Virus record (IMG/VR): IMGVR_UViG_3300042456_000759 | DNA from: a virus | Lineage: Duplodnaviria; Heunggongvirae; Uroviricota; Caudoviricetes | Reading direction: 5' to 3' (one strand) | Length of the DNA: 64,000 nt | Part shown: positions 15,201 to 31,972 of the stretch, one piece after another | How positions within the stretch are numbered: the stretch's first letter is position 1 | Layout: the number at the start of each line of letters is the position of its first letter | Program-made: the position numbers and the translations under genes | Notes under the pieces: model-generated | The model's input: the letters and a program-made list of their open reading frames with translations, nothing else | Told to the model about the DNA's origin: nothing | Databases searched by the model: none

Positions 15201-18200
15201 TCATTTAATGATAAATATTTACTAAAATCTTTAGATTTAAATCCTTCTTTCTTTTCTAAAGACTATAATTCAAGTTCTTCTTTAAATACAGAAGCTGTTA
15301 AAATCATAGAAAATTATTTCTTACCTCAACTTAAAGATGAGATTGACTTACTGTTTTCAAAAGATGCTTTAAACGTTCAATTTTTAAAAGATAAAATAAA
15401 AAATAAAGAACTTGGTTATTATCAAGATATTGTAAACTTTTCAAAAGAAGATTTTGAAAAGATTGCAAATGATTATAATTCAACTCAATCAGGATTATAT
15501 TCTTATTTACAATCTGCTATACCTTCTATCTATGTATATTTAAGAAATCAAATTGAAAATGATTATCAGAATTTATATAAAGCAGGATTCTTTAAGAATA
15601 TTGATGGTAGAGTATTAATATCTCGACAAATATTAAATTCTAAAGAAATTGAATTTATGAACCAGGGTTTAAACGCATATTTAGATTTTAAAGGTATAAA
15701 AGGAAAAGAACGAGAAAAGTATATTCAAAGAATTACTGGTAAAAATCAAAATACTAGTATAGCTAGTGGAAGATTAGCTAGTTTTTTCTTTAAAAAGATT
15801 GATGAAATATATATGATCTATGCTCAAGCTGGATATAAAGATATTACAGCATCTAATTTAGAACATATATTTAGAAAAATAGCTATTCAAGTTACTGTAA
15901 ATTACGAGATATATAATAAAGACATACAAGGATTTTTATATGGACCATTTAGTGCTTATAAAAAAGGAGATTTTGGTAAACGAGCAGGTTTCTTAGCTAG
16001 TTCTAAGCAAAGTCAAGATAATTCAATTACAATTAATAATCATTTAAATTTAACATCTAAAAGATTAGATGGAAAAAACAGAGATGGTTTATTATCTTTT
16101 GTCTCTTATAAAGATCCTATTGTCGTATCAGCAAGAATAACTTCTATTGCTGAAGATTTCTATAAAGTATTAAAAAATGATAAACATAGTCATGATACTA
16201 TTGAAAGACTTGTAGGAGCTAAATTTAAGAAAGATGGAACATTAAAAGAAATCACAGCTGAACCAGGTACATTATTAGCTCCTTATGAAGAATTAAAACT
16301 AGCAGATGCTCAAGCTTATATAATGTTAGATACATTTTATGATTTATTATATAAATCAGGAAAATTAACTAGATCTCAAAAAGTACATATTCAATATGAA
16401 ATGGCTTTAGAAAGAATAGAAAGATCTGAATTACCAAAAACTGATCCTGCTTATAGACCTTTAACAACAAAGCAAAAAGTTAAAGATTTAGAATTTATAA
16501 ACAATCCTCAAATTAAAAAAGAGGCTAATTCTGCTGTATTACAAGTTTTAAAACCTCAAGGATCTGGTTTTAATCAAAATAATTTAGATGTAGCTATTCC
16601 TATATTTTTAAAAAACTCAGTAGTTCCATTATCTTGGTCTCGTGTTAAAAATAATCCTATTTTACGAGATAAGTATATTACTTGGCAAAAAAATCAAATT
16701 GATTTAATTGGTTTTGAATCTGGTCAAAAAATAGGAGCTATTTTAAAAGATGGTAATTCTACTCCATTATATAATATTGATGGATTTAATGCTGAAATTC
16801 CTTTTATTCAAAAAATGAAATTTAATGATTTTGGTATTCAACAAGAAACTCCAAATGAATTTAAGAATTCTGTAAATAGAGGAGTACAAATTACTAAACT
16901 TATTGTAGGTAATTTATCTCATCATTTTAAAAATAAACCACATATTAAAGAATTAGTAGATGAATATTATGCAAACTTAAATGAACTTTATCAAAGAGGT
17001 TATGATAGTTTAATGAAGAAATTAGGTTTAAAATTAGAAGGAAATTATTACGTAACAGATAATTTATCAAATCTAGTAGAAACTTTATCTGAACAAGCAA
17101 AATTATTAAAATTACCAATTAATGTTAAAGACATGTTTGTTGTAGATAGTTCTACTGGGAAATTACCTTATAAATTTGATGCTTCTACAGAACGTCATAG
17201 AATAGAATATATATTGAATTCTATTTTAGATAGAACATTAATTCATCAAAAAGTTAAAGGAACTCAAGCTCCTCAGATATCTTCTGTATTTGAACAGTCT
17301 AATTTAAAACCATTATTTAAACGTAAAGGTATTTGGACTGAATATACTCAAGGAATGAAATTATCCGCAGATGAAGAAAAATCTATAAGATATTCATCTA
17401 CAGATTTAAAAATATTAGAAGATGGAACAATTGAAGTAAAAATACCTTCATATTTAAAAGGTTTAGTAAATCTCAATACTTCTAAAATAGATCCAGAATT
17501 ATTAGAATTAATAGGATATCGTATTCCTACTCAGTCATTCGGACAAGTAGAAAAAATTAAAATTGTAGGATTTTTAGATCAATCTTATGGTGATGCTATT
17601 ATTGTTCCAGCTGAATTAGTCGGTAAATCTGGATCGGATTTTGATATAGATAAATTAAATTTATATTTCCCACATTATTATAAGGATAAGCAAGGAAACT
17701 ATAGATATATTTCGTATTCTACATCTGATGAAGAATTAGGTTTACGATATAATAATTATATTAAATCAAATGAAGAGAAAGTTTATAGAAAATTAAAACA
17801 ATGGATATTTGATGCTATTAAAGACATGGCTTCAGATTTAAATATTAATTTAAATAAAGAAGATTTATCTAAGTTTTTTACTAAAAAAACATTTAGACAA
17901 TTACCTAATATTATCAAAGAAGAGTATTTTGATTTACAAGAAACTCTTCAAAATAGTGAAAGTAAAATATTAGAAAAAACAATAGCTCATATTCAAAAAA
18001 CTTCAGAATTAATTTCTGAATATGAAGAAGCTTTAGCTAATAAAGAAGAAATTGAATATGAAGATAAAGATGGAAATATAGTTATATCACCATTTGATGT
18101 ATTACCTTTATTATATACATTACAAACTGAATATGATACTTTATTAAATGCAGCTGGTTATAATCAAGATCAGATTGAGTTAATTCGTGAAAAATTAAAA

Positions 18201-20786
18201 GAATTTAACGAGTATAAAACAGAGTTATTAACAAAAGATCTTCCAAATATTCCAAATGAGATAGCTATAACATATGGTTATATGTCTATTGATGATTTTT
18301 CTAAACTTCCTATTTTAAAACAAAATAGTCTAGAAGCTTTAGAAAATAGAAATATAGAATTAATGAAACGACTTATTTCATTACCTGAAAATAGACTTCA
18401 GCACTTAGCTCCTAATTCTGCTTCTACTATTGAAGCTATGGATAAAATTATTAATTCTTCAGAAGTTAAAAAGAAATCTTATCATCTTTCAACGTTTTAT
18501 GGTTCTACAGAGTTTAGAAATATCATGGTAAGTGCTAAGAATCTTGTTGGTGCAGGTGCTCTTCATATTACAGGACATCAAATAACTCAAATGTTTAATG
18601 TATCCTTTTCAGATGAAGATACTTTTAAACACATTCCGTTTATTAAATCTAATAGATTAGATAAAGTATATGATAGTAAAGGAAGATTAATCTCTTCAAA
18701 TCTATCAGAATTTTTATCAGCTTTTGTGGATGCTGCTAAAGATCCTTTTGCTGTAAGATTAAATTTAAACAATTCTACTATTAATGTAGCTTTAATGTTA
18801 ATTCGATTAGGTGTATCTATTGAAGAAGTATTATATTTTATTAATCAACCTTCAATTAAGAGATATGTAGCAAGATATAATAATGTTAGTTCCTTATTAA
18901 GGAAATCTTCTAATGAATCCCAGAATAGAGCTATGGCAGAAGCTTATGTATTATGGGAATCTAATAGAGGAATGTATGGAAAAGATAGTTTAAAACATTT
19001 AAGAATACCATTTAATGCAGAAAAAATTAATACTCAAGATGAATTAGATCTTTATTCAGCTGAAGAAAAGAAAACAGAATATATTTCTTTAACAGATAAA
19101 ACTATAGAGACTATATTTAATTATGGTACGTTTGAAGAGATAAATAGAATATCTTACATGATTAAGAAAAGTGTAGCTCTTCCTAATATATCTACTTCTG
19201 AAGGGAGTGAAAATTATCTTAAAAATTTAGAAAAATCACTAACAGGAAATATATCTAATGAAATAAAACATGAAACAGATATTTATTCATTGGGATTATT
19301 TATGAGTTTATTAAAACCTGCCCAAGAATTATCTACTTTAAATACAGCAACTAATATAGAGTCAAAGAAAACCAAAACTCTTATTGAAAATAGAAGTTTA
19401 CTAAATACTGTAAGTAGTTTATTAGGAAGGTTATCTCCTCCATTTACTAATTTAGATGCTATATTTAGTCAAAGTCATTTATCAACTGTATATAACAATA
19501 GAAAAGATTTTGATAAATATTTAGCACCATATTTAATGGTTGCGGATCCAACTTTTTCTAATTTGTTAGATAGTATTGCTACTCAGGGTTATATATCATT
19601 AGCATATGGTCAAGCTAAAAACGATTTAGTTTATAAATTTAATACATTTTTATTATCTTATTTAGTTCAAAATAATCCTAATTTCCGACCTACTCAAGAT
19701 CATGAAACTATGTTTAAACGATTAGCTTCTCGAATAAAAGCTATTCAAACTAGTGAACATTATAAACCTTTTAAATCTCATAATTTATTTAAAAATATAT
19801 CTTATACATTAAGAGGACAGTTTGGAGGAGATTTAAAGACTCAAATTAGATTATTAAAATATCAGGAAGAAGAGACAATTGATAGAGATATTGAAATTCA
19901 AAAACATGAAAATGCCTATGAATTAGCGTTATCAAGAATGAAATCTTCTAGATTACCTGCAAAAAAAGAATTCTATGAAGAATTAGTTAGTATTTATGAA
20001 GATTTAGTAGATTATAGTATATTACAATCTGGATTATCTGCTCAGTTTACATCTTTAGCAGGAATATTACCTGCTGATTTATTTGCTAAAAAAGTATCTA
20101 AATACTTAGATTTAACTAATTTAAATGTAGACTTAAGTAATTTATGGGATATATTTGTTAGGAATAATCATAGAAATCCTTTATTAGTTGACATTAAACC
20201 TGAAGTAATAAGAAATTCTAATATTATTGATTATAATGGAAATACTTATTATAGAGTATATTCAAGAGTTCCATATATTAAAAGAAATATTTCAAATTTA
20301 ATAGAATCTGAAGATATATTTTCATTTGAAGAAACTGAGAAATTAGAATCTAAGTTTTTAAGAGTTCTTCCAAATGAAGAAATTAAAGGAATTGTTGAAG
20401 AGTTAGATTTACCTAAATCAACAAATTGGAAACTATATGAAGAAATAACCGCTTTAGGTGATCAACAATGGTATTTAGAAACTAAAGATATATATGATTC
20501 ATTATCTTCAAGAATTCCAGGATATATTGAAGAAGATTATTCTTTACCAGAAGAAACTATAGAATCTGAAAAAATACAACTTTCTCAGACACAAATAGAT
20601 ACATATGTGTTTTATAAAGAATTATACACGAATGATGCAGATATTAGAGAATTATTCTATATATTTGCTGATAATTACGATATATCATATAATGATATTA
20701 ACAGTTTGTTAAAAACATTGATTTTAGATCACAATGATGTATTACAACCTATTATAGAAAAAACATTAATTGAAAAAGCATGTTAA
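6279..20786 (+). CDS. Giant virion-packaged two-barrel RNA polymerase of crAss-like type (4835 aa), with N-terminal Gly-rich membrane-like region, inserted cassettes and a zincin-like domain
   Basis: GYRIPTQ followed by GSDFDIDKL (DFDID at 17637-17651, aa 3787-3791) is the crAss-like/phi14:2 variant of the DxDGD metal-binding motif. FVDAAKDP lies downstream. HEAFE...EMLAE zincin-like segment at 13194. Confidence 0.9.
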   Translation: MVTNEQLKPTTIPGSFNPQQTLTDVYVPSTFEDRFGALLNNPMPSNLGLRIPIDDFKTEYADGSKFRGLFQKSGDKLKQDPNFDPITSRVITTPLSEVEPYLKYDSNYDNNLNAAFGQAGKGAVVGGGVGSFFSPIGTAIGAGVGGTLGFFSGLLTTSGRGVYIPGRDNRQEILEKQSGFWNTLGGFTNNFLDRSFEAGIGGTAALLTSPFGAIAGREFYDWGSNPLTRKLSESLEQSEYKRHLSDNYLNKGPIAKFFTAEGFQNEIADMAGFTVGMMLGAKINMGLNAGAGQAVSKLAIGLKNPGLATSISNRGGNLIGDFLPTVAKRASALFTKGSTKLTAAQQAATFSELNLVTLAKNAFKKGTFEDYGKNLINAFKNPAFGLKALSSFERTALASYGEGRVEAAQAYKDIYDTALKNGYSASESAEMATKGANKTLLGNLAILGVTNQFGLNQLTNVSSIKNLSRWFSKDFTLDVTTSKILKETLKDISKNATKGFVIEGFGEELGQFAISQAAKNQQLNMADPLNPIHKAFFTEFIEAYKDGISSDEGMSNWFGGGLFGSVMGGFGPGGIMSTLNEANKAKTINIPDSLKTKISNFSSAIDFISKHTVPFNGQLFQSYREENGEYIPDNNGTVRLINDPTRLIKLTQALNHINTLSKDQANLILTNVKNNIKTEDPAMQEGFKIIKDYVDLFGETGEKSLEEYINQDLSSKEKQNTLYLLSKLGETVIENEYALESDLSNIAKSMVSSSYVFDHVVNGIEDKIFDELDALEESLLDPTSESGQKDLIEFFGKNYKLDQLDQAKEDIKTFRDQLKKQVKIFKGLANRYSEPFTHINIKKDNKVHKLPITVDMYSVFRSALVQDDLNTMVSEIDEKLNDIKSELLADPQYSQDYLNPNNTSEDVLDIAKKENNNPLYLQYQVLENLKKQVSDSLQKENKAFEELTDVKKLIEKAQKSEKAINSEIENPAKSEDLPKPKPVTVTESSQEPEDNPEEKVEPVVSTDAKADIERIRQENDSLGKSILQKLGYKNENRLPNGNVKGGQSGWKIRFNIKSPTGGNYFNTGNKTLENDKHYNEQAQKLVDWLNSYFGTKSKGSVSEAIKGYTLFGFTDEHPSSIWKFLSGGEQGESDFTIYIGSADDVLKFVEDVKKSPIADLLVAGNQGSDVNITPDGIFKARIEGSKIGFSGYGAPIDLNVVTGEENFTFVFDGRRVNINYGKTKGPSDISITVEGGNSEGINWNYKVVGDDNLKKDFPELYKNIRNIIGFQLYGDYLQGSNNEFLKLTGVDKINAKYDAELKELEQKPISTTQSEIASKTQDEFAQYLQDNHSDRLSQEQIYKLLTVRPELREKMLNDSPEEWAKIFEKNQDYRQQANNVDNNKEMRGNANPAWTGISIGETANQEQDGRHKGYVTLDVNSAREMGKNLEQTFKDLYQLLKDAGYNGHLKMPGVYSDLLTRFDNIVIHGATKGDVSLALPIIEQYFKDKGLNVEGTKTGIDAKDSNGKETSHTNLLAEKVKNKSLEKPISTTQSDIESKTKEELFPIDSLHKGKESGDILKVIGYIKDGVRFEIQTKGTLKPKKNLIISELKRLIIEGKLAALEQPTNGDPASGGKSAQRPPIQGPVEYGDPDNDNSSLEEEDYRADASRTPLSQTTIFKTYGADFRNGKIQLNNIAKSYFYDQILDLKKDHFFLPIPVSSELALSIVKDKEGDFYKDYKANPTDLIYLLVGIDNDNNPIVYNLPTGKTIPEQIPLIDILSNKTIPTGLIYDKSSTFPIDRITEKFSRTEKYSTQDIDKIYNNYILGLNQMAIDSLSLVEEYNKDVINVNKLRIAVQNNLKPIIGITPGVQDGRVSKVKYEKLSEDYSIHIPTLETAIETKYHELKLGTVYAYQNGKYTKTLRRKFNKNEAQVLANLIKKSLSGEILETSEELYLKSVLNWFDNLTTPTAYNKNSVGIVNGQFIAAPYFGNNNNPKLGFTWSIDDSMDRLVEFFSSHYPHINKTKLNTAYQYFQDKETDTIYENYEEYLIEREIITIPTPVNDRLPVKSNRQLIFDPQFGFDNIQTNDEKNIYRTSKIKLIKDNFTDPMSIQHFFTNDLKKTTPSEEKNGNKIYYFNNIYLSIVGPNDILLAGNVSKYFDNDIWNNTSINAAQVTKDEFDQDVIPYGIKFNLMVTIDSNDEVTINIEKLKKNESTEESEDPGTDEVKNERESPEETPEAQKETSENEEDESYEDSDEGIDEEPPFRLFTDSTDIENIEEFKVWLSEILPQFSVQVSSDAIKGVAQGALIGSFITLWKNAGSGTGYHEAFEAVWGYFIDSDTKEKLIKEFKSKEGTYKNPFNKKTVKYSESTDNDVKEMLAEGFIDFMKNRKLQPKAPIQNNFFLKLLDLLKRLFSNISKIFKKSEKEAIDNINDIYEKIASGNYSQEVISDFNLGIQFRQRFAAEDIDLNHVHLFNSMLYDRVMSLLGFSNIYDIIDNNIENDVTTSELIGKHIIEQGNALLTELQSEFKTKKIKGFSFFDDNFEFKNDSLRKELLENATQVFLQKSKLDSFVSIDSLDEMEVSSKEGIVPTNEINPTSNVNNVTRFLLNNLKYYTANEAGVLQPAVVNTYFGKTRDITLTINKKPDFTTIQTFLLNKLANVVPYYKDGQEVALFDAMMEKLSLYENKETWIKDLKYKLGIGYSSLSDNIIKMRLAFVTSFKNAEYEPIVLRSSDNVVYMENPVYESSQTALLESWISNVQDKASLSSSVNITLNKDLNKGQVIFPKKGLTNKYEQRDYFKDILGIDIGDPKEDEIIQALDTILSIIKFRQVVIFDDLVKDYAQSSFRTLSKYIASKESSSSKSYKNSDGKAEFSIINPTFISDIINVYNSVDNYNDFLLSYPHFHNNFELKLGLKNNYFLKKGGFLFDKNGLKYKNSKITLKLLSGIQDKTNVKGFSFSKMSLEDKLVFKAVAALSGNYSLLMNSDKNMENSLSFNDKYLLKSLDLNPSFFSKDYNSSSSLNTEAVKIIENYFLPQLKDEIDLLFSKDALNVQFLKDKIKNKELGYYQDIVNFSKEDFEKIANDYNSTQSGLYSYLQSAIPSIYVYLRNQIENDYQNLYKAGFFKNIDGRVLISRQILNSKEIEFMNQGLNAYLDFKGIKGKEREKYIQRITGKNQNTSIASGRLASFFFKKIDEIYMIYAQAGYKDITASNLEHIFRKIAIQVTVNYEIYNKDIQGFLYGPFSAYKKGDFGKRAGFLASSKQSQDNSITINNHLNLTSKRLDGKNRDGLLSFVSYKDPIVVSARITSIAEDFYKVLKNDKHSHDTIERLVGAKFKKDGTLKEITAEPGTLLAPYEELKLADAQAYIMLDTFYDLLYKSGKLTRSQKVHIQYEMALERIERSELPKTDPAYRPLTTKQKVKDLEFINNPQIKKEANSAVLQVLKPQGSGFNQNNLDVAIPIFLKNSVVPLSWSRVKNNPILRDKYITWQKNQIDLIGFESGQKIGAILKDGNSTPLYNIDGFNAEIPFIQKMKFNDFGIQQETPNEFKNSVNRGVQITKLIVGNLSHHFKNKPHIKELVDEYYANLNELYQRGYDSLMKKLGLKLEGNYYVTDNLSNLVETLSEQAKLLKLPINVKDMFVVDSSTGKLPYKFDASTERHRIEYILNSILDRTLIHQKVKGTQAPQISSVFEQSNLKPLFKRKGIWTEYTQGMKLSADEEKSIRYSSTDLKILEDGTIEVKIPSYLKGLVNLNTSKIDPELLELIGYRIPTQSFGQVEKIKIVGFLDQSYGDAIIVPAELVGKSGSDFDIDKLNLYFPHYYKDKQGNYRYISYSTSDEELGLRYNNYIKSNEEKVYRKLKQWIFDAIKDMASDLNINLNKEDLSKFFTKKTFRQLPNIIKEEYFDLQETLQNSESKILEKTIAHIQKTSELISEYEEALANKEEIEYEDKDGNIVISPFDVLPLLYTLQTEYDTLLNAAGYNQDQIELIREKLKEFNEYKTELLTKDLPNIPNEIAITYGYMSIDDFSKLPILKQNSLEALENRNIELMKRLISLPENRLQHLAPNSASTIEAMDKIINSSEVKKKSYHLSTFYGSTEFRNIMVSAKNLVGAGALHITGHQITQMFNVSFSDEDTFKHIPFIKSNRLDKVYDSKGRLISSNLSEFLSAFVDAAKDPFAVRLNLNNSTINVALMLIRLGVSIEEVLYFINQPSIKRYVARYNNVSSLLRKSSNESQNRAMAEAYVLWESNRGMYGKDSLKHLRIPFNAEKINTQDELDLYSAEEKKTEYISLTDKTIETIFNYGTFEEINRISYMIKKSVALPNISTSEGSENYLKNLEKSLTGNISNEIKHETDIYSLGLFMSLLKPAQELSTLNTATNIESKKTKTLIENRSLLNTVSSLLGRLSPPFTNLDAIFSQSHLSTVYNNRKDFDKYLAPYLMVADPTFSNLLDSIATQGYISLAYGQAKNDLVYKFNTFLLSYLVQNNPNFRPTQDHETMFKRLASRIKAIQTSEHYKPFKSHNLFKNISYTLRGQFGGDLKTQIRLLKYQEEETIDRDIEIQKHENAYELALSRMKSSRLPAKKEFYEELVSIYEDLVDYSILQSGLSAQFTSLAGILPADLFAKKVSKYLDLTNLNVDLSNLWDIFVRNNHRNPLLVDIKPEVIRNSNIIDYNGNTYYRVYSRVPYIKRNISNLIESEDIFSFEETEKLESKFLRVLPNEEIKGIVEELDLPKSTNWKLYEEITALGDQQWYLETKDIYDSLSSRIPGYIEEDYSLPEETIESEKIQLSQTQIDTYVFYKELYTNDADIRELFYIFADNYDISYNDINSLLKTLILDHNDVLQPIIEKTLIEKAC
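10197..10910 (+). repeat. Imperfect 54 bp direct repeat (10197-10250, 10857-10910) flanking a 660 bp in-frame module
   Basis: aaacctatatctactactcaatctga (26 bp) is identical in both copies; 5 mismatches over 54 bp. Encodes KPISTTQSEIASK and KPISTTQSDIESK. Confidence 0.95.
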
Positions 20787-21268
20787 CAAGTAAAATAATT
20801 GAACAACTAAATTACAGAATTCAACAAGAAGAATTCTCATCAAGATTATATAAACAAATGAGTTTATGGTTAAATGATGAAGGTTTTATAAATCTTAGTA
20901 AAATATATAATAAATATTCTCAAGAAGAATTAGATCATGCTCAATGGGCTGCTGATTTTCTTTTAGCTCATGGTATTAAACCTGATTTAAAAGAATTAAA
21001 TGCTCCTAATGATATTTATGAGATAAGTTCATTAAAAGATATATTAGATTTAACCTTATCTCATGAAAAAGAAATTACAAATCAATGTAATGATTTAGCT
21101 TCTTTAGCATTAAAAGAAAACTCTCATACATTATATTCTTTAGCATCTAAATATTGTCATGAACAAGTAGAAGAATTAGAAAAAGCTATTACTTTTTTAG
21201 ATATATATTCTAAAACTAAAGATGAGTTATTTTATGATCATTATATTGGAGAAAATTATTTAGATTAA
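20780..21268 (+). CDS. ftnA: Ferritin (non-heme, FtnA-like)
   Basis: Ferroxidase-centre pattern is retained: QQEEFSSRLY (E, Y), EELDHA (E-x-x-H), HEKEIT (E), EQVEE (Q, E). 162 aa four-helix-bundle size. Confidence 0.8.
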   Translation: MLTSKIIEQLNYRIQQEEFSSRLYKQMSLWLNDEGFINLSKIYNKYSQEELDHAQWAADFLLAHGIKPDLKELNAPNDIYEISSLKDILDLTLSHEKEITNQCNDLASLALKENSHTLYSLASKYCHEQVEELEKAITFLDIYSKTKDELFYDHYIGENYLD

Positions 21269-21270
21269 TT

Positions 21271-24200
21271 ATGTTGTGTCCCATAGAACAAGATAAACGC
21301 TGGATTAAATTGCTTTCTTTCTTAAAAAATAGACAGAAAGCAATATTTTATTGGAATATGTATAAAGAGAATATTCCAGATTATTTTTATTCAGATCCAA
21401 GTATTATATCTCAAATTCCTGAATCTTCAGAAGAAGTTACTAATCCTTCAGAAGCAGTTCCTATTAAACCAGCAATAGAAGAATTATTTGATTCTACTCC
21501 TGAATTAGCTAATCAAGTATATAAAGCTTTAGGGTTTAATCAATCTACATTTGATACTAAAGAAATAACACTATCAAAAGAAACAAGTATTGGTTGGATG
21601 TTTATTCAGCTTAATAATAAAAAAATAGGCAGAGTTAAGTTTGTAAATAATGGAGAAAAAGGACAATTAGGACTATCTATTGAAATTAATGATGAATATC
21701 AAAGTAAAGGTTATGGACAAATAGTTCATACTTTAATGGCAGATTTAGCTAAGAAAGACTATAAAAGTAATTTGTACTCTGATTATCAAAATAGTAGTCA
21801 AGAAATACAATTATTAAATTCATTAGTTAAAAAAGGATATGCTGAAAAAATAGGAGATATTGGTAAAGCAAGTAAAGAATATCCAGATAGTTTTGTAACG
21901 GAAGAAAGAGCTTTTAGAATTAAAACTTCTGATGAAATTCAACAGATAACCCCACAACAAAAACAACAAGCTATTTCTTTATATTCTCAATACTTAGACA
22001 CTATATTTCCTGATAGTAAAGTAAAAGATATTGTTTATCATGGAAAAAATGAAGGAAACTCTTTAGATTTAACTCTTTATGAAAAAGATCATGATATATA
22101 TTTTGCTCCTTCTAAAGAAGAAGCTGAGTATTGGGGGGGAAGACCTGGTAAAACAGGATACTTGAAAAAGAATACAAACCCTGAAACTTTCAATATCATG
22201 ATAAATGGTAGAGATGCAAATTTAGAAGAAAAAAAAGAGTATCTTAAAAAATTATTTGAAATCAAAATTACACCAGCTATTATAAATAATCCGTACAGCG
22301 GTATAACTCAAACTGATGATGGACGAAATTTAAAAGAATATTCTAGTAAACCAGAACAAATACACATATTAGGAAGTAAACGAGATATAGAAGGATTTAA
22401 AGAGTTTGTAAGTAAAAAAGAAGTAGAGGGAGAAAAAAACAATCTTACTACACATGCTAAAGTTTTAGAAACTACTATTAAAGAACAACTTCCAAAGGAA
22501 ATAGCTGATACAATTACTATACTTGAAACTATTCCAGAAGAAATTTTAGGAAGAGATGATTTGTATTTAGCAATGAAAGATGTGTTAGAAGCAAATGGAA
22601 TTACAGATCCAGCCTTAATAAACTGGTTAGGTATAAATAAAGGTAATAAACATCCTAAAAATTTTACATCAGAAGATCAAGTAAAAAAACTTATTGAAGA
22701 TACTTATAATGAGCTATTAAAACAAGAATATGCAGAGTTTAAAAAAAATCCCATAGCTAAGGAATCTTATGAAAAATGGAAAGCAGCGTTAGAAAAGTAC
22801 CCTACTTGGTTTAAACATCCAATGCTTAAACACGCTATCAAATATCTTAATCCTCAAAGAAGAGATAAGTTTGTTCTCCAACTCAGTGAAACAGCTCTAC
22901 AAAATACTTATGGGTTAGTAATAGGTAAACCTCATGAACTTAATAGAATTGGAAAATTGTACGACAAGGAAGTTTTAGCTGTTGTAGCAGAGGCTGGGAA
23001 ACATGAGAGATCAGCTAGTGGTAGAGGTTATTGGGTACATGTACCGAGAACACAGCAACCTTTAAGCGACGAGGGTCTTGTAAGTTACTCTGAAATACTT
23101 AAAGGGTTAAAAGATCCAAGTCTTATAAAGACGACTTTTCTTTATAAAAATATACGTTACTTTGTAGAAGATAATAAAATAAAAAAACTATTAAGTGATT
23201 TGACATTAAGTTCAGAAGAGGTAAATTTATTAATTAAAGATATAGAAAATGAACTTACAAAAGCAAAGAATTCTCAGTTCAAAGCTAACGTAGAACTTCT
23301 TCGTAAACTATCTCCTGCAACATGGTGTACAGCTACTTACAATGCTTCTTATTATGTAGAAAACTTTGACAACTATATTCTCATAGTAGATGGTGTAACA
23401 GTAGTTGGAATTGAAGCATACCCATCTTTGATAAAAGCTAGATTTACACGAAATGAGAATGATAGCACATATGAAAAGACATTTGAAAATGAAGAGTCTC
23501 TTTATGAATATGCTAAAAAAACCAATGAAGAGTTTGTAATTCAACAAAGCAAAAAAGAAGTAAAAGAAGTTACTTCTGTTAACAACAATGGAATAGCTTC
23601 TATAGACCACTTAGAAGATACAATAGCTTTTTTTGAAAAGCATGGGTTAGATACTAATAATTCTACAATCCAAGCTGCTATTAAAGCTAAGGAAAGTGGT
23701 GGTGAAGATAAAGATTTCACCTATGCAGAAGACAATGGTGATCTTGATGAATACTATAACCTCGCTTACGGACCTTATGCAGAAATAGAAGATAGAGCAG
23801 CTGCTATAAACACGTTAGAAGAAGCTAGAACTTTTTTATTTGAAAGAGTTGGAGGAACACCTAACACTGAATTCTATTATGCTCTTAAACCTGAGTTTCA
23901 AGCTGATTATGAACTAGCCAAATTTACTATAGAGCAGAGTCCACAGATGATAGGAAATATAGAATCAGAATTACCTTTCTACTTAGAATTAGCTAAGTTA
24001 GCTATGCAAAAAGATTTTAGTCTTTTTCAGTACTTAACAGTTGAAGCTAAAGCTGATCCAGATAATATAGCTGCAAATGAAGCTTTTATCGTTGAAAGAA
24101 ATAGACGACAAGCAATATATCTTCAATTACCAGAGCAACAAAAAGAAGAAGTAAATCTTATAGTAAATAATTTAGATGGTACAGAAGAAGAAAAAGCTCG

Positions 24201-26325
24201 TATTTTAGACCAATATACTACAAGGGAAATTTTAGATACTCTTAATAAGTATATTAATATAGACACAATTCAAACTTTAAGACTAAAACTAAATATAGAG
24301 TATTTACCTTTGTCTAAAACAAACGAGAATAGAATACAGGGTTACTACGATGCCACAAATGATAAAGTAGTTATTATAGCTGCTAATGTCAAAAAAGAAG
24401 AAGCAGCTAAAGTAGCTATTCATGAAGTAGCACATAGAGGTATGCTTCGTATGGCTAAAGAATTAGGAGGTGTAAAGCAATTACATGACGCTCTTATAGG
24501 AGCAGAGCAAGAGTTAATAAAGAAGCTACCAGAACTTTTAAAAAGAACTGGACATACTTCTTTAGAAAATTTAATGATTGATTACGGCTTTGATAAAGAC
24601 AGTAGAGAGGGAAAGACAAAACTTCTTATGGAGCTTGCTGCAAGGTGGGCTGAAACTTTAGTTGATAAACCTAAACCTACTTGGTGGGTTAAATTACTGC
24701 AAAAACTTGGAGATTGGCTTAAAATATTTACTGGTAAAACTTTAACGGAAGATGAAGTTAACAGTCTTGTAGGAGGTTTTGTAAAATACGGGAGTAAAAA
24801 GAAAGAAAATAACTCAGAAGAATCAGAATCAGGAATGAAAGCTTTACCTACATTATCAAGCAATAAATCTCCTGTATATTCTGCTGTTTTTGTTGATACT
24901 AATGTTCTTATACAAAAATATGGTCAAGTTTATGAGAATTTATATTCTCATCATTCTACTATTGAATTTAAACCTAAAGATATAAGTAATCTTCCTATTG
25001 GTGATCCAATAGAAATTAAAATTATAGGAAGATTAACTACTGATAAATTAGATGTATTATTAGTTGATAATCCTCTTTCTAAGAATAAATATCCACATAT
25101 TACATTATCTACAATAAATGGTATAAGGCCAGTTGAAAGTAATTCAGAAATTGAAAAAAATCAAAAAAAGATAAAACCGTTAAATGATAGTATTGAAGGA
25201 ATAATAGGTTATTCTGATGGCGTTAAAAAAATTACAACTCCATTACCAAAAAAAGTAACACCTGCTGTTAAACAATCTATTATAAATAGAATTAATTCAT
25301 TTAATACATTAGAAGAATTAAATCAAGCCTGGGAGTCACCTAAATTTACAAATGATCAAAAAGCAGAATATAAAGAATATTTTACTAAACGTAAAGAAGT
25401 TATATTAGCTTATATGAAGAGAGCGGAAGACTTTAAAAACTATGTAAAAAATAACATAGGAATATTTAAAACTATTAAATTAGGTGAAAAATATACTGAA
25501 TTTGAAGCTCAAATCACAGGAAATATAAGCGGAGGCCAAATAGAAGTTAGAACTAATACAGGTAAAATTATTTTAGTTAATAGAAATCAAGTCATAGATA
25601 AAATAGAAACCTCTCCAAGTATTAATGTTGAACTTGAAAATTATGTAAATTCTAATAAGAATATATTTAAAACTGTAATATTAGGAGGGAAATATGAAAT
25701 ATTTGAAGCTCAAGTTACAGGAAAAATAAGTAAAGGAAAAGTAGAACTTAAAACTAATACAGGGAAATTAATACAAGCAAGTTTAGATCAATTAAGGGAT
25801 TTAAATAAATCTACTAATAATAAGGATTTATCAAGACTAAATCATAGATTATCTAAATTTGAGTTTTCTGATGAATTAAGAGTTCTATACGATCAATTAA
25901 TAGAATTATATAATTATGATACAAATAAAGTTCATAAAGATATTATTTCAAGATCAGATGTAATGTTTCAACCATATTTTGTTAATGAGCAGAATGAATT
26001 AGTTGGAGTATATTATTATGAATCAGAAACAAATCCTACCTTTGGCAGATTTGCTAAAAGTCTTTCAGATGCAAGAGCTAGTTTTTTAAGAAATGCTATG
26101 AATAATGGTTTTAAACTTAATATTATTCAAAAGTATTCTCCTTTAGCAAAATACTATCCTGCAAAACTTGTATCGTTTTATTATTCTTTAACTGAAGATC
26201 AATTAAAAAAAATTGATAGTATGTTAAAAAAAGAAGGGTATGAAAAGATAGAAGATTTATTTAATAATAAAATAGCTTTAATATCAGAAGATGATATTAT
26301 TGAAATATTAAAATGTCATATATAA
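21271..26325 (+). CDS. Polyvalent virion cargo protein (1684 aa): GNAT, ART-like, PcfJ-like, zincin, 2H phosphoesterase and tandem SH3-like repeats
   Basis: GNAT motif A-like EYQSKGYG; VYHG...IYFAP (ART-like); WCTA; HEVAH at 24421; HST and HIT motifs at 24952 and 25096; two 67-aa repeats starting at 25438 and 25639. Confidence 0.7.
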   Translation: MLCPIEQDKRWIKLLSFLKNRQKAIFYWNMYKENIPDYFYSDPSIISQIPESSEEVTNPSEAVPIKPAIEELFDSTPELANQVYKALGFNQSTFDTKEITLSKETSIGWMFIQLNNKKIGRVKFVNNGEKGQLGLSIEINDEYQSKGYGQIVHTLMADLAKKDYKSNLYSDYQNSSQEIQLLNSLVKKGYAEKIGDIGKASKEYPDSFVTEERAFRIKTSDEIQQITPQQKQQAISLYSQYLDTIFPDSKVKDIVYHGKNEGNSLDLTLYEKDHDIYFAPSKEEAEYWGGRPGKTGYLKKNTNPETFNIMINGRDANLEEKKEYLKKLFEIKITPAIINNPYSGITQTDDGRNLKEYSSKPEQIHILGSKRDIEGFKEFVSKKEVEGEKNNLTTHAKVLETTIKEQLPKEIADTITILETIPEEILGRDDLYLAMKDVLEANGITDPALINWLGINKGNKHPKNFTSEDQVKKLIEDTYNELLKQEYAEFKKNPIAKESYEKWKAALEKYPTWFKHPMLKHAIKYLNPQRRDKFVLQLSETALQNTYGLVIGKPHELNRIGKLYDKEVLAVVAEAGKHERSASGRGYWVHVPRTQQPLSDEGLVSYSEILKGLKDPSLIKTTFLYKNIRYFVEDNKIKKLLSDLTLSSEEVNLLIKDIENELTKAKNSQFKANVELLRKLSPATWCTATYNASYYVENFDNYILIVDGVTVVGIEAYPSLIKARFTRNENDSTYEKTFENEESLYEYAKKTNEEFVIQQSKKEVKEVTSVNNNGIASIDHLEDTIAFFEKHGLDTNNSTIQAAIKAKESGGEDKDFTYAEDNGDLDEYYNLAYGPYAEIEDRAAAINTLEEARTFLFERVGGTPNTEFYYALKPEFQADYELAKFTIEQSPQMIGNIESELPFYLELAKLAMQKDFSLFQYLTVEAKADPDNIAANEAFIVERNRRQAIYLQLPEQQKEEVNLIVNNLDGTEEEKARILDQYTTREILDTLNKYINIDTIQTLRLKLNIEYLPLSKTNENRIQGYYDATNDKVVIIAANVKKEEAAKVAIHEVAHRGMLRMAKELGGVKQLHDALIGAEQELIKKLPELLKRTGHTSLENLMIDYGFDKDSREGKTKLLMELAARWAETLVDKPKPTWWVKLLQKLGDWLKIFTGKTLTEDEVNSLVGGFVKYGSKKKENNSEESESGMKALPTLSSNKSPVYSAVFVDTNVLIQKYGQVYENLYSHHSTIEFKPKDISNLPIGDPIEIKIIGRLTTDKLDVLLVDNPLSKNKYPHITLSTINGIRPVESNSEIEKNQKKIKPLNDSIEGIIGYSDGVKKITTPLPKKVTPAVKQSIINRINSFNTLEELNQAWESPKFTNDQKAEYKEYFTKRKEVILAYMKRAEDFKNYVKNNIGIFKTIKLGEKYTEFEAQITGNISGGQIEVRTNTGKIILVNRNQVIDKIETSPSINVELENYVNSNKNIFKTVILGGKYEIFEAQVTGKISKGKVELKTNTGKLIQASLDQLRDLNKSTNNKDLSRLNHRLSKFEFSDELRVLYDQLIELYNYDTNKVHKDIISRSDVMFQPYFVNEQNELVGVYYYESETNPTFGRFAKSLSDARASFLRNAMNNGFKLNIIQKYSPLAKYYPAKLVSFYYSLTEDQLKKIDSMLKKEGYEKIEDLFNNKIALISEDDIIEILKCHI

Positions 26326-29300
26326 ATGAAGTGTATAAATAAAAGTCATCCTAATTTTTTAAAATTAGAAAAACGTTTAGGTAAATTAGGTGCAGAATTA
26401 GCGGTAAGACATTATTCTAGAGTTAAATCTAGAACAGGAGATTTTATATATCCTGAAGTTAAAGATTTAAATGCTTTTTATTCTTCATTTAAATCAGTAC
26501 AAGAAAGATTGATTTCTTCATTAGTAAGTTTAGATCCAAATATATCTAAAGGAGTTTTAATGCATGCTTTAACTGGAATTGTAACTGGTCCTCGAGAAAA
26601 GATTAAAGCTGATCATATTGTAATGGGTTTTAATGATAATAATCAATTAAAAAACCAGAATCTTGAAATCTTTCAAAGATTATCTAATTCATTTCCAGAT
26701 ATTTTTCAATTTAAAGAAGGAGGAATTAATTCACAACATGTTTATATAAGAGAAGGTAAATATAATCCTAACATATCTTTAGAAGAAATATCTAGTTATT
26801 TAACATTTGATAATTCTATTTCTGATTTTATAGGATCTTTAAAATCCATAAATAAAGCAAATCCTCGTTTTGAAGCAGCTTTAGAAGTTTTATTATATAA
26901 ATTAGAGTCTAAATTTAATATTTCTTGGAAATTTGATTATAGAACTCCCAAAAAAGGATATATTAAAGATGGGGTAGTTTATATTAATCCTAATTATGCA
27001 ACAGCTGATACAGCTATTCATGAATATTTACATCCATTTATAGAATTAGTAAGACTAAATAATAGTACTTTATACACTTTATTAAGTAATAAAGCTAAAA
27101 CACTTGAATATAACGGATCTAAATTAATAGATCAAATTAAATTATCTTATCCTGAATATTCTGAACAAGCTTTAATTTATGAAACAATTGTAACTGCCGC
27201 AGGTTTAATATCTACAGGAGAATTAACTGAACCAGTAGTTCAATCTTATTCTCTCTTTGATTTAATTGATAGAGTTGTTTCATTTTTTATGAAACTATTT
27301 GGAAAAATAAAAGACTTTGAAGTAAATCTATCTACTCCATTAACTACATTATTAAATGGATTTTTAAATGATGATTTTTCTGTTAATTTGAAAGACTATG
27401 CTTTTGCAGCTGATCAACGTTTATCTCCTACAGAAGTTAATAAAGTATTAGATGATATAAATGATAATATTGAAGTAACCTTTGTAAAAGGTGAATTAGA
27501 TATAGATGAGCCAAAACGTAAATATATTGATAAACGTAGTCAGCAAATATTTAAATCTGTGCATGAAGCTATTATAGATGTCTTTTATAAACAAACTTTT
27601 AAAAAAACATTTTCTCCAACAGAAAAAAGTGAATATTTAAAGAATGTAGGAACTGTTTTTCATAATTATATAGAACAATTATTATCTGATAAATTTACTA
27701 TTGTAGATAAAGATGGTTATTTGAATGAAAATTTAAAGAAATTAAGTTCAGAAGAAAGAAGTGAAGCAATTCAAGACATGTTAATGAGTTTAGTAAATGA
27801 TTTTGCTATTACTTCTCCAGAAGATGAAAATAAAATATTATTAGATTCTGATGCAGCTAATATATTAAAAACAGTTGTTGCTGAGTTTTTACCAGGAATG
27901 ATTGAATTTTACATTCAAAGACATGGAATAGATGTTCAATTTAGAACTGAACAAAAAGTAATTAATCCTGAAACAGGAATAGCTGGTACTATAGATTTAT
28001 TAGTTTTAGGTAATGGAAGTTTTTCTATTGTAGATTGGAAGACTTTATCTGCTAGTAGATATGATAAGTATAATACTACCTTTAGAGAAATTGAAATATT
28101 ATCAGATAAAAAAGAAACAGCTTATGCTTTACAGTTATCAGAGTATGCTAAAATGGTTAAACGATTAACTGGATTAGAATTTATTGATGGTAGAGCTATA
28201 CCTGTAGGTCTTTTTGTAGGTAAAAAGAGTGAATTCAACATATTTACAGGAGAATATGATAAATCTGATGATTATACATTAAATTCTTTTAATCCTGATA
28301 GAGATCCTATTACAATTCAACCTTTTGGATCCACTGAAATTAAACAAGAAGGGGAAGTTCCTCAACGTTACTTACTACCAATTATTGTATCTGATGAGAA
28401 TGAAGATCATATTAATACATTAATTAATAAGCTTGAATCATTATTACAGAACTATATTAAACAACAAGAAGAATCTAGAGAAGATAGAGAATTCTTAAAA
28501 TCTTTAAGATTTAGAGAAATTAGAAAGATTATTCAGGATTTAAAAGTCAGAAAAAGTGCTGATGCTGCTAAAAGACGTATTAACATGTTAATATCGGAAG
28601 CAGAAAAAGAGTTAACTAAAAAAACTGAAGACATTAATCTAAAGAAAATACAAGATTTAATTTATGAATTAAATGTATATAGTAACTTATCTACTTATTT
28701 TCCTTTAGAAGATCAAGATAACACAGAAGATAAAAATGCTTTAGCTTTATTAGAAAGAAAGATATTTTTAAGTGTAAAAAGTTTAAAAAATCTTAGAAAT
28801 CAGATATTATCTGAACAAGCTCAAGGTTTTGGTATATATAATTTAACAAGTAATGAAAAAGCATATACAGGTGCTAAAAGGCATTTTAGAGAGTTTTCTG
28901 CTATATCAGATGTAAAAACAATAGCTTTTTTAAATGCAAAACAAACATTATTATTTAATAAAGCTAATATTGAGAAATTAAAACATTTTAAGAATCTTAA
29001 TGAGTTTTCTAAATTATCCCAATCAGATTTTAATTATTTCTTTCAAAAGAACAGACAAGGAAAAAGAATTCCAAAGTTAATAGCTAAAATTGATAAAGGT
29101 AAAATATTAGCTGAAGCTAATGGATTTGAAACTTTAGATGAGTTATATGCTTTTGAAGATGATAATTTTATTAGAAATGATGAAGCTTATCAAAAAGCTA
29201 AAAACGCATATCGAGATTTTTTAATGTCTACATTAGATTTTATAGATGTAGAATTAGAAGAAGAAACCGAGGAGGAATATTATCATAATCAAGCATTACG

Positions 29301-31686
29301 AGATAAATTAAATCAATTGCTAGATGTTTGGGAGCTTGAAAATAACAAAGCTTTTATTGAAAGAGAAGGTGTAATAACAAATATTAATTGGAGATTTTTT
29401 AATTTAACTGAAGAAGCCGAAAGTAAGTTTCATACTAAAGATTATATTAAATTAAAAGAATCTGAAGACAGAGTCAATTTATATAATACTCTTATAGATA
29501 TAAATACTAAAGCATTTGAAGAAGGTTTAATCCCTAATAAATTTACTTTCTATCCATCAGCTTATGCTACAATAACTGAAAAAGTACAGGATAAGAACTT
29601 TTCAGATATATCTCTTCAGAATTATTATAGAAAACTAAAAGAGAATATTAATGATGAAGATAGTTTGGCTGAGACTATTATAAATCCTATTACAGGTGAA
29701 GAAGAGTTAGTTATTCCTAAATTATTCCAACAAGATATATCTAATATTAAAGAAAAAGATTTATTTTCTAAAATAATTAGCTTAGATGATGAAGATTTTG
29801 CAGTTAGACTGGAAGAATATGGATTAAGAAAAACGTTAGAAACTTTTGATTTTACTATTGATGAGATAAATAAAGTTTTAAATTTAGGATTTGATCCAAA
29901 ATCAAAAGTCATTGATAAATATGATATTATTAATGAATTAAAAGATTATAGCAATCAATCATTTAATTTATTAAAAGTATATTCATTATTTTCTTCTCAT
30001 TTAGAAGAATTTAAAGCCAAACAATCCTTAGAAGAATTATCTAGAATTTTAATTGAAATTGAAAAAGATAAAGAAAATCTTCAAGTTAATAAAGATGGAA
30101 ATATAGTATATAGTACAAATATTTCTGGTGAAAAGATTCCTCAAGTTATTAAAGGACATAATGAAAATACTGAATTATTAAGACGTTTTATTAATTATTC
30201 AGTATATGGTAAATCAGGATTTTCAGAATTAGCAAAGTTTGCAGGTAACACTATCTTAAATACTAATATCTCTACAGTTAAAACTGTTAAAAAGTTAATG
30301 GCTTGGAGAAGTATGACTACATTAGGTTTTAATATTTTGTCAGCTAGTTCAGCTTTATTTGGAGGTATGTCCAATCTTTTATTAGAAGCCAATAGAAATG
30401 GATATTTTACAAAGTCAGATATAGCTTCTTCCAAAGTAAGTTTAGCAAACTCACTATTAAACGATACAGCAAAGGAAAGAATGAGATTATTAGATTCAAT
30501 TGACTCTTTTATTGAAGATTCAGATAGAATTAGAGGTAATAAACTTTCAAAAGTAACGTTTGAGAAACATTTTACTCAGGAAAAGTTATATTTCATGTTA
30601 AGAAATGTAGATAAATACATTCAAAATGTAATAGGTTTATCTACTTTGAATAATTTTATTCTTAGAAATAATGAATTATATAATATTAGAGATTTAGCTA
30701 AAGAAGAATTAAATTATGAGGCTCAGTTTAATAATATGATGAGTCTTAAAGAATTTGAAAATGTTAGTAAATTAGATATAGAACTAGAAAATAAAATAAA
30801 AGAATTACAAAAAGAATCCTTATTTAACAATCCTTCTGTTGAATTATCAGAAGATCATATTATTAAATTAAGACCTTTGATTCAAAAATTAACTACAAAA
30901 GTCATAGGTAATGCTTCACATGAGGATAAAAATGCGTTTGGATTAAGTGCATTAGGTGTAATATCTATGCAATTTAAAAATTGGATGCCTAGATTAGTTA
31001 CAGAAAGATTTGGTGATCCTGAAATAGATAATGTAACTAAACGATTAAATTGGGGAAAATATATGACGTTTAAAGATTTAATAGGAAAGGATTTTTTACA
31101 ATTAACAAAAGCAGCATTTTCTCAAATGAATGAAGTTTCTTATGAAAAAATCCTAACAAAATATAATAACTTAAAAGAACAACATTTATTAAATGGAGGA
31201 TCAGAAAATAACTTTATTTCTTTTTCAGATTTTACTCATGTATATATAAATAATATTAGATCTACTTTTAAAGAATTATTAATTATAACTAGTTTACTGA
31301 TAGCTATGTTATCCATAGGAATGGCCTGGGATGATGATGAACCTAAGTCTGGTTATCAAAGATTAGTATTAAATATGTTAGGTAAATTTAAAAATGAGTT
31401 AACCTTCTATATAAATCCTGTTTCTTTTACAGATTTAGTAAATAAACCTTTCCCAGTAGTTCAGACATTAGTAGATGGAATGAGATTTGGAGAACATATG
31501 ACTCGATATAGCTTTAATCAAGTTCAAAATATTTTCACGAATGATGAACAAGAAGATTTAGAAAAAACCCACCCTTTTAAATATTTTAGTAAATTATTTC
31601 CAATTTCTAAAGAAATGATGAATTGGATGGCTATTATAGATGAAGATTTTAGAAAAAAACATAATATAACTTTAAGATATAATTAA
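26326..31686 (+). CDS. Polyvalent virion cargo protein (1786 aa) with zincin and PD-(D/E)XK (RecB/Cas4-like) nuclease domains
   Basis: HEYLH at 27019-27033; GTVFHNYIE...TEQ...GTIDLL...IVDWKT...QLSEY nuclease motifs at about 27650-28150. Helical C-terminal region with a hydrophobic segment (LLIITSLLIAMLSIGMAW). Confidence 0.7.
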   Translation: MKCINKSHPNFLKLEKRLGKLGAELAVRHYSRVKSRTGDFIYPEVKDLNAFYSSFKSVQERLISSLVSLDPNISKGVLMHALTGIVTGPREKIKADHIVMGFNDNNQLKNQNLEIFQRLSNSFPDIFQFKEGGINSQHVYIREGKYNPNISLEEISSYLTFDNSISDFIGSLKSINKANPRFEAALEVLLYKLESKFNISWKFDYRTPKKGYIKDGVVYINPNYATADTAIHEYLHPFIELVRLNNSTLYTLLSNKAKTLEYNGSKLIDQIKLSYPEYSEQALIYETIVTAAGLISTGELTEPVVQSYSLFDLIDRVVSFFMKLFGKIKDFEVNLSTPLTTLLNGFLNDDFSVNLKDYAFAADQRLSPTEVNKVLDDINDNIEVTFVKGELDIDEPKRKYIDKRSQQIFKSVHEAIIDVFYKQTFKKTFSPTEKSEYLKNVGTVFHNYIEQLLSDKFTIVDKDGYLNENLKKLSSEERSEAIQDMLMSLVNDFAITSPEDENKILLDSDAANILKTVVAEFLPGMIEFYIQRHGIDVQFRTEQKVINPETGIAGTIDLLVLGNGSFSIVDWKTLSASRYDKYNTTFREIEILSDKKETAYALQLSEYAKMVKRLTGLEFIDGRAIPVGLFVGKKSEFNIFTGEYDKSDDYTLNSFNPDRDPITIQPFGSTEIKQEGEVPQRYLLPIIVSDENEDHINTLINKLESLLQNYIKQQEESREDREFLKSLRFREIRKIIQDLKVRKSADAAKRRINMLISEAEKELTKKTEDINLKKIQDLIYELNVYSNLSTYFPLEDQDNTEDKNALALLERKIFLSVKSLKNLRNQILSEQAQGFGIYNLTSNEKAYTGAKRHFREFSAISDVKTIAFLNAKQTLLFNKANIEKLKHFKNLNEFSKLSQSDFNYFFQKNRQGKRIPKLIAKIDKGKILAEANGFETLDELYAFEDDNFIRNDEAYQKAKNAYRDFLMSTLDFIDVELEEETEEEYYHNQALRDKLNQLLDVWELENNKAFIEREGVITNINWRFFNLTEEAESKFHTKDYIKLKESEDRVNLYNTLIDINTKAFEEGLIPNKFTFYPSAYATITEKVQDKNFSDISLQNYYRKLKENINDEDSLAETIINPITGEEELVIPKLFQQDISNIKEKDLFSKIISLDDEDFAVRLEEYGLRKTLETFDFTIDEINKVLNLGFDPKSKVIDKYDIINELKDYSNQSFNLLKVYSLFSSHLEEFKAKQSLEELSRILIEIEKDKENLQVNKDGNIVYSTNISGEKIPQVIKGHNENTELLRRFINYSVYGKSGFSELAKFAGNTILNTNISTVKTVKKLMAWRSMTTLGFNILSASSALFGGMSNLLLEANRNGYFTKSDIASSKVSLANSLLNDTAKERMRLLDSIDSFIEDSDRIRGNKLSKVTFEKHFTQEKLYFMLRNVDKYIQNVIGLSTLNNFILRNNELYNIRDLAKEELNYEAQFNNMMSLKEFENVSKLDIELENKIKELQKESLFNNPSVELSEDHIIKLRPLIQKLTTKVIGNASHEDKNAFGLSALGVISMQFKNWMPRLVTERFGDPEIDNVTKRLNWGKYMTFKDLIGKDFLQLTKAAFSQMNEVSYEKILTKYNNLKEQHLLNGGSENNFISFSDFTHVYINNIRSTFKELLIITSLLIAMLSIGMAWDDDEPKSGYQRLVLNMLGKFKNELTFYINPVSFTDLVNKPFPVVQTLVDGMRFGEHMTRYSFNQVQNIFTNDEQEDLEKTHPFKYFSKLFPISKEMMNWMAIIDEDFRKKHNITLRYN

Positions 31687-31687
31687 T

Positions 31688-31924: not shown

Positions 31925-31958
31925 TTTTTAAAATTAATATACTTTATAGATTAAAAAT

Positions 31959-31972
31959 CAGTAACTTATATT
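31959..31972 (+). promoter_or_regulatory. Possible promoter box (GTAACTTATATT) upstream of the lysis/fibre operon
   Basis: Intergenic. Differs by one base from GTATCTTATATT upstream of nrdJ on the - strand, and resembles the Bacteroidota TAnnTTTG element. Confidence 0.3.

Follow-up and report, generated by a model that had tools for sequence, protein, structure and literature searches.

We analyzed a window of 64,000 nucleotides (nt), by which we mean the whole stretch of DNA examined, from a Caudoviricetes virus (IMGVR_UViG_3300042456_000759). Its plus strand carries a single block of large genes, from about 640 to 31,700, encoding proteins of 383, 554, 925, 4835, 162, 1684 and 1786 amino acids (aa), in that order. 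Our subject is the three giants of this block, whose few cysteines lie, all but one, at ends that face one another from one protein to the next. The best explanation of the block is that it contains the injected-cargo genes of a distant crAss-like phage, and that the three giants are a fused gp47-like/RNA-polymerase protein followed by two multi-domain effectors. Synteny suggests that the giant proteins are carried in the virion. We use the word chain for a series of cargo proteins with such facing ends. The chain members and their neighbors, including one open reading frame (ORF) that interrupts the series, are as follows.

1795..3459, plus strand: 554 aa protein with no Cys, putative small cargo, so assigned only by its position upstream of the chain
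3512..6289, plus strand: 925 aa protein with no Cys, putative small cargo by its position compared with crAss001 gp45 and gp46
6279..20786, plus strand: 4835 aa protein, first chain member, a gp47-like part fused to a virion RNA polymerase (assigned by phmmer, motif and Cys count)
20780..21268, plus strand: 162 aa ferritin-like ORF, not a chain member (Pfam PF00210, E = 2e-22)
21271..26325, plus strand: 1684 aa protein, middle chain member, a multi-domain cargo protein with Cys3, Cys1682 and a non-conserved Cys686
26326..31686, plus strand: 1786 aa protein, last chain member, with a PD-(D/E)XK nuclease domain and Cys3 as its sole Cys

The 4835 aa protein aligns with crAss001 gp50 over aa 3431-4196 (phmmer, whole-protein E = 6e-24; domain E-values of 9.5e-18 and 1.1e-9 in a small local database). 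It contains one GSDFDIDK motif at aa 3787, which reads GSDFDIDK in phi14:2 gp66 and GSDFDVDK in crAss001 gp50. Despite its homology to gp50, the protein has no match among PDB sequences (phmmer, E of 1e-3) and no PHROG match, and we therefore place it, by its sequence, as a distant and very divergent member of the crassvirus virion RNA polymerases. A jackhmmer search with its last 120 aa found no relatives in the local sequence set.

Searches of PHROGs and Pfam returned no match for the 383, 554 and 1684 aa proteins, and the 925 aa protein has a Pfam match below threshold only. The nuclease domain of the 1786 aa protein lies at aa 436-615 (PF12705, E = 1e-5, 26 bits with a cut-off of 22). The first 82 residues of this protein (26326-26571) are confidently predicted by AlphaFold2 to form a three-helix N-terminal module (predicted local distance difference test, pLDDT, of about 81-94 over aa 1-80), where Cys3 is located in a short stretch preceding helix 1. 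The module has a pattern, C-I-N-x-x-x-P-x-F ... W ... N ... F/Y-P-T, that is common to about 20 relatives, and Foldseek found no match to it in the PDB.

Cysteines at the ends of the giant proteins

An earlier note on this DNA had counted cysteines by eye in the 554, 925, 4835, 1684 and 1786 aa proteins, and our computed counts agree with it exactly. The 155, 383, 554 and 925 aa proteins are free of Cys. A single Cys forms the final residue of the 4835 aa protein (codon 20781-20783), three occur in the 1684 aa protein, at residues 3, 686 and 1682 (codons 21277-21279, 23326-23328 and 26314-26316), the last of these being third from its end, and the only Cys of the 1786 aa protein is residue 3 (codon 26332-26334). 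The three giants together contain 5 Cys in 8,305 aa (0.06%), compared with 89 in 7,227 aa (1.2%) in the window's other listed ORFs. Within their terminal 10 + 10 residues, 4 Cys are observed where about 0.04 are expected. The Cys3 common to the 1684 and 1786 aa proteins does not come from whole-protein paralogy, as BLASTP finds no significant similarity between the two.

Near-total Cys suppression has been described for the ejection proteins of N4-like phages (Schitoviridae), namely the gp50/gp71 virion RNA polymerase and its partners (PMC11445570). The giants and the proteins upstream of them show the same kind of suppression, with a Cys frequency far below that of the rest of the window. They depart from the Schitoviridae type, in which there is no conserved Cys anywhere, because the terminal cysteines are conserved across the crAss phage order.

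The earlier note had described these proteins as consecutive. The 1684 and 1786 aa genes do adjoin, but the 162 aa ferritin-like ORF stands between the 4835 and 1684 aa genes, directly adjoining both of these chain partners. The ferritin-like ORF has Cys at residues 103 and 126, and none at its ends.

Facing cysteines in cultured phages and metagenomic relatives

Reference phages were picked independently of a conserved domain of the 1684 aa protein (aa 60-400) that recurs in its metagenomic relatives. Their terminal cysteines are given below, with negative numbers counted back from the last residue (-1).

crAss001: gp47, one Cys at -3; gp50, Cys at 5, one internal and one at -9; gp49, one Cys at 5
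phi14:2: gp078, one Cys, the last residue; gp077 (the crystallized polymerase gp66), Cys at 3 and -2 only; gp076, Cys at 3 only
crAss002 (L089, MN917146): gp32, one Cys at -2; gp33, an internal Cys motif of the N-terminal type
p-crAssphage (L090, BK010471): gp45, Cys at -2; gp44, Cys at residue 3
Flavobacterium phage Fpv2: 4401 aa protein, single Cys at -2; next protein, Cys at 3
Gut metagenome-assembled genomes cr126_1, cr55_1 and cr109_1: the same facing-Cys pattern

The three phi14:2 proteins contain 4 Cys in 5,398 aa, and all are annotated in the GenBank record as structural proteins detected by mass spectrometry. In crAss001, gp50 and gp49 are encoded on the strand opposite gp47, and the facing cysteines are kept; an artefact of gene junctions is thereby ruled out. 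The expectation that terminal Cys would be conserved and would co-occur in homologues is borne out, with the predicted polarity, and it extends to cultured crassviruses. The accompanying claim that pairing follows gene order was drawn too narrowly: in crAss001 the pairing crosses from one strand to the other, and in the window a ferritin-like gene intervenes.

Two of the reference genomes have features that bear on their annotation. In crAss002 gp33 (15242-27979), the stretch Met33-Ser-Cys-Thr-Pro-Ser-Asn-Pro-Lys-Leu matches the usual N-terminal Cys motif, and the annotated start is probably about 32 codons too early. In cr109_1 (L094, NC_055892), the cargo genes at 8284-28931 have dozens of in-frame stops under table 11, which indicates that stop codons are recoded. 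The facing cysteines are kept in this recoded genome (gp53, -3; gp52, residue 4).

We then turn to metagenomic relatives of the 1684 aa protein. Neither tblastn against GenBank phages nor a single-sequence scan of viral contigs found any, and relatives came only from a large protein search and a profile-based scan of viral contigs. The protein search listed 120 relatives of 1,000-2,900 aa, mostly with 30-40% identity over one fifth of the query. Nearly all of these 120 have a Cys at residue 2-8 and just one or two Cys in total, and about one third also have a Cys within the last 1-6 residues. Both terminal cysteines of the 1684 aa protein are retained in P0002, P0006 and P0010, the first and third of which have no other Cys. 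The conserved domain of about 330 aa (aa 60-400 of the 1684 aa protein; motifs P-G-V-x-E-L-F-x-S-N-P-x-L-A and F-P-D-S-K-V-K-D-x-V-Y-H-G) occurs in 100+ relatives at the N-terminus, in the middle or at the C-terminus, sometimes twice, and many of its carriers have precomputed matches to ART-PolyVal PF18760 or to PF12705. This is strong evidence for giant proteins built by module shuffling. Because the domain's position varies while the Cys stays terminal, the Cys is tied to the chain end, not to the domain.

Pairing predicts a C-terminal Cys only ahead of a protein with an N-terminal one, and no Cys at the outer ends of the first and last proteins. Three contigs obtained by exact protein look-up all agree with this prediction; the profile scan of viral contigs added 80 more loci. 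A junction was scored wherever one low-Cys ORF of 400 aa or more followed another, and 97 distinct junctions were left once duplicates had been merged. Both facing Cys are present at 66 of them, neither at 25, the N-terminal Cys only at 6 and the C-terminal Cys only at none. Consequently, after every C-terminal Cys (66/66) the next protein has its own Cys within residues 2-8. Fisher's test gives a p-value of 7e-18, which overstates the significance, as the junctions are related by descent. The 88 full-length relatives with 800 aa or more contain 141 Cys, and 99 of these fall within the terminal 10 + 10 residues (1.6 expected). Positions peak at residues 3-5 and -1 to -3.

The start/stop overlap gcATGTTAA, which the polymerase gene shares with the ferritin-like ORF, contains the TGT of the polymerase's last codon. 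This coincidence would suit a reading in which the terminal Cys codons arise at the nucleotide level, as a side effect of overlap, translational coupling or initiation context, with no role in the protein. We give that reading next to no credence. The overlap fails to explain the polymerase's last Cys, because relatives without it keep theirs (L002 has a Cys at -4 without any gene overlap). Partners that are split by inserted genes or by gaps of 0.5-3 kb also keep the Cys, the opposite strands of gp47 and gp50/gp49 in crAss001 contradict such an origin, and a Cys within the first 10 residues is seen in just two of the listed non-chain window ORFs of at least 150 aa.

The terminal cysteines have a clear polarity. 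A first protein has the Cys at its C-terminus alone, a middle protein at both ends, and a last protein at its N-terminus alone. Chains are two to four proteins long, with L017, L042 and L078 as examples. The fused polymerase of the window provides a further comparison. At aa 1007-1288 it matches a first protein that L017 encodes separately and that has a C-terminal Cys. Over aa 2206-4651 it matches the stand-alone polymerase proteins of L025, L032, L034 and L053, each of which has a Cys at both termini. The 4835 aa protein itself has no internal Cys. By these alignments, the Cys pair accompanies separate proteins and is missing where the two are continuous in one polypeptide. According to the literature, the three crassvirus proteins are fused in some phages.

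These patterns bear on whether the two kinds of terminal Cys belong together. Each could act independently, as an anchor to the portal, the capsid interior, small cargo or DNA, or as a packaging or processing mark, with pairing that reflects shared ancestry. The six junctions that have an N-terminal Cys and no upstream C-terminal Cys are consistent with independence, and so is the lone near-C-terminal Cys in the small upstream cargo of p-crAssphage and crAss002, since it demonstrates that terminal Cys exist outside the chain. We consider independence unlikely, though worth keeping in view. It sits poorly with first proteins that never have an N-terminal Cys and last proteins that never have a C-terminal one, with the 66 of 66 C-terminal Cys that meet a partner, and with the loss of Cys at fused junctions. 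The pairing also outlasts changes in chain length from two to four and wholesale domain shuffling.

A few loci depart from the pattern. The upstream giant of L028 (2-11257) has 7 Cys, none of them C-terminal, and that of L080 (3-8780) has 11 Cys. In L055 (8132-10783) and L082 (1805-9406), the middle protein lacks the C-terminal Cys that is kept in the close relative L017; these two exceptions may come from frameshifts or assembly errors.

Candidate links between the facing ends

An alignment of 19 N-termini leaves Met1 and Cys3 as the sole invariant columns. There are preferences around the cysteines: acidic residues and then Lys precede the C-terminal Cys, and the N-terminal Cys tends to be followed by C-[PI]-N-x-N-x-P-E-[WF]-K-x-L, counting from the Cys itself. 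The sequences after the N-terminal Cys nevertheless fall into several unrelated classes.

In polyketide synthases (PKS) and non-ribosomal peptide synthetases (NRPS), short matched C- and N-terminal elements (docking domains and COM domains, respectively) order separate giant subunits. By analogy to PKS docking domains or to the Rad50 zinc hook, the facing termini of the cargo proteins might pair non-covalently, through contacts at a docking interface or through a shared metal, possibly iron or zinc. The same co-occurrence and polarity would result, the preferences beside both Cys would have a use, and the problem of oxidizing thiols in anaerobic hosts would be sidestepped. The recurrence of a ferritin-like, iron-binding gene at the junctions is also in keeping with it. 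Yet one Cys per side is too few for a metal site, with no conserved His, Cys or Asp adjacent, and a shared docking surface predicts something other than unrelated sequence classes in which only the Cys is invariant. We judge such pairing rather improbable. The PKS and NRPS pairs are non-covalent helical docking pairs that act in the cell, in contrast to a single conserved Cys per side in the virion.

The ferritin-like ORF of the window has homologues of about 165 aa that lie exactly between chain partners, at a junction that varies from genome to genome:

L002: 9502-10008, ferritin-like ORF at a junction
L079: 8938-9447, ferritin-like ORF at a junction
L047: 9279-9779, ferritin-like ORF at a junction
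L017: 11180-11680, ferritin-like ORF at a junction
L082: 11984-12484, ferritin-like ORF at a junction
L034: 1687-2190, ferritin-like ORF at a junction

Their position may simply mark where insertions are tolerated; alternatively, the ferritin-like protein could have a redox or iron role linked to the terminal thiols.

The facing cysteines could also be handles for a ligation other than a disulfide, by a thioester or by chemistry like native chemical ligation, that would produce a true polyprotein. The geometry, with a Cys near the C-terminus facing one near the N-terminus, and the existence of real fused versions are all that recommend this. We saw no ligase signature in the termini, whether of an intein, a sortase, a butelase-like enzyme or another type. 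The N-terminal Cys occupies residue 3-5 instead of residue 1, and the GenBank records of phi14:2 and crAss001 list each protein as its own product. We regard ligation as very improbable.

Several known identities for a terminal Cys were considered and rejected. In a split intein, the first protein ends with an N-intein of at least 25 residues that begins with Cys, and the second starts with a C-intein, some 35 residues long at minimum, whose final Asn precedes a Cys. The cysteines here are 0-7 residues from the C-terminal end and at residue 2-8 from the N-terminus, which leaves no space for the two halves, and the 1684 and 1786 aa proteins have no Pfam intein domain. In a lipobox, the Cys comes after a hydrophobic signal peptide, about 15-25 residues in length, whereas the Cys at residues 3-5 here directly follows Met and 1-3 mostly small or polar residues. 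Eukaryote-type acylation at CaaX or Met-Gly-Cys does not fit the varying positions of the terminal Cys, and we know of no bacterial machinery for either.

From the position, conservation, polarity and co-occurrence of the terminal Cys, and from their absence at fused junctions, we infer that the facing Cys bond to each other as disulfides and act in packaging or ejection. On balance, and with moderate confidence, we favor a model where head-to-tail intermolecular disulfides tie separately encoded cargo proteins into a single thread, which is packaged and ejected as such and then reduced in the host cytoplasm. The 4835 aa protein would be bonded through its last residue to Cys3 of the 1684 aa protein, whose Cys1682 would bond Cys3 of the 1786 aa protein. 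Because the links would lie within a few residues of the ends, and nearly all other Cys have been purged, the thread in the virion would be nearly unbranched, and it would be packed at a fixed 1:1:1 stoichiometry. It would pass through the tail partly unfolded and in a fixed order. Reduction of the disulfides in the host cytoplasm would then yield separate proteins, with no protease needed.

Disulfide links would account for several characteristics of the cargo together. Terminal placement would keep the side branch short for threading, the purge of other Cys would avoid wrong links or loops, and the outer ends of the chain and the fused junctions would be expected to be Cys-free. Disulfides are present in crAss001 virions between the tail hub and ring proteins (Bayfield 2023, PMC10172136), which we count in favor of this model. 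Partial unfolding at ejection was proposed in the same study, and packing and mutual interactions were suggested there to set the order of exit. The earlier note's picture of docked proteins in a chain is supported in part: its comparative predictions came true, the docking, the disulfide and the ordering of packaging or ejection are candidate features, and its wording in terms of gene order was too narrow.

A number of points weigh against disulfide threading. The bond between terminal Cys is read from sequence, not from direct evidence. The cytoplasm in which virions assemble is reducing and many hosts are gut anaerobes, which makes the timing and means of thiol oxidation a difficulty for the model. 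At 6 of the 97 junctions an N-terminal Cys has no upstream C-terminal counterpart. Conversely, p-crAssphage gp47 (5588-8161, Cys at -2) and crAss002 gp30 (4547-6220, Cys at -8) have a lone near-C-terminal Cys with no obvious partner; these small upstream cargo proteins of Intestiviridae are either an unpaired exception or use a different link. Some relatives have several internal Cys (5 in cr126_1 gp003 and 7 in p-crAssphage gp44). The junctions are not phylogenetically independent, which makes the Fisher p-value too strong. Finally, the parity of Cys in three-member chains also fits other pairings, such as first to last with a circularized middle protein.

A bolder version of disulfide threading can be proposed, which we hold only tentatively. 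Here, an N-terminal Met, 1-3 residues and a Cys would be a universal redox-cleavable coupler that tethers its carrier by a disulfide to the tail of the preceding cargo protein, so that carriers are packed at fixed stoichiometry, threaded, and freed by reduction. The pairing reaches shuffled downstream effectors of changing content, which fits a general coupler. As part of this proposal, the ferritin-like gene at the junctions might supply an oxidant in anaerobic hosts. If the coupler exists, the crassvirus cargo would be a plug-in train, and both the free gain and loss of shuffled effector modules and the creation or deletion of a Cys pair when genes are split or fused would be explained.

As a separate observation, p-crAssphage has an annotated thioredoxin and a truncated thioredoxin near its cargo block (30978-32245). 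These could aid the release of a disulfide-linked chain, or merely serve ribonucleotide reduction.

Relation to known cargo systems and significance

The cargo of crAss001 consists of gp45, gp46, gp47, gp49 and gp50, whose presence in the virion was found by mass spectrometry (Bayfield 2023, PMC10172136). The window's giants resemble crAss001 gp47/gp50/gp49 and the phi14:2 set (g067/g066/g065 = gp078/gp077/gp076), which are giant virion-packed proteins downstream of tail and cargo genes. They have in common with both phages the DFDxD polymerase motif, homology to gp50 and the same rule of terminal Cys. Unlike in those phages, the first two members are fused in the window into the 4835 aa protein. 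The two downstream members also differ, having no phmmer match (E of 0.01) to the cargo and polymerase-set proteins tested from crAss001, crAss002 and phi14:2, including crAss001 gp49 and phi14:2 gp076.

The downstream members have a second, possible affinity. Polyvalent proteins, associated with the 2017 work of Iyer, Burroughs, Anand, de Souza and Aravind, are reportedly very large proteins of shuffled enzymatic modules (ART-PolyVal, PD-(D/E)XK) that are thought to be delivered with the DNA. The 1786 aa protein passes the PF12705 cut-off. The 1684 aa protein has no Pfam match, and its aa 60-400 domain is homologous to carriers of PF18760. As far as our literature search reached, coupling through terminal Cys is not part of the polyvalent-protein concept.

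As in N4-like phages, the injected giant polymerase and its partners are almost free of Cys. The N4-like phages have essentially no Cys and a polymerase in one polypeptide, in contrast to the crassvirus cargo, which is split into two to four polypeptides that keep their facing terminal Cys. A 2026 paper on N4 poses the relation of the three crassvirus proteins to the single N4 polypeptide as an open question. The word 'cysteine' is absent from the text of Bayfield 2023 (PMC10172136), and the preprint on the phi14:2 polymerase (Drobysheva et al., bioRxiv 10.1101/2020.03.07.982082) makes no mention of cysteines or disulfides. Cys depletion in ejection proteins is therefore known, and matched terminal Cys in crassvirus cargo appear to be undescribed in the searchable literature, whose coverage is incomplete and leaves their newness unproven.

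How megadalton protein loads pass through a narrow podovirus-like tail in an ordered and measured way is an open problem, according to the crAss001 atlas and also to the N4 study of 2026. A conserved end-to-end rule that can be read from sequence would provide a concrete mechanism for cargo delivery, and it would link the split polymerase set of crassviruses to the single-chain polymerase of N4. In uncultured crAss-like genomes, the terminal Cys mark the membership of cargo chains, true start codons, and the fission and fusion of genes.

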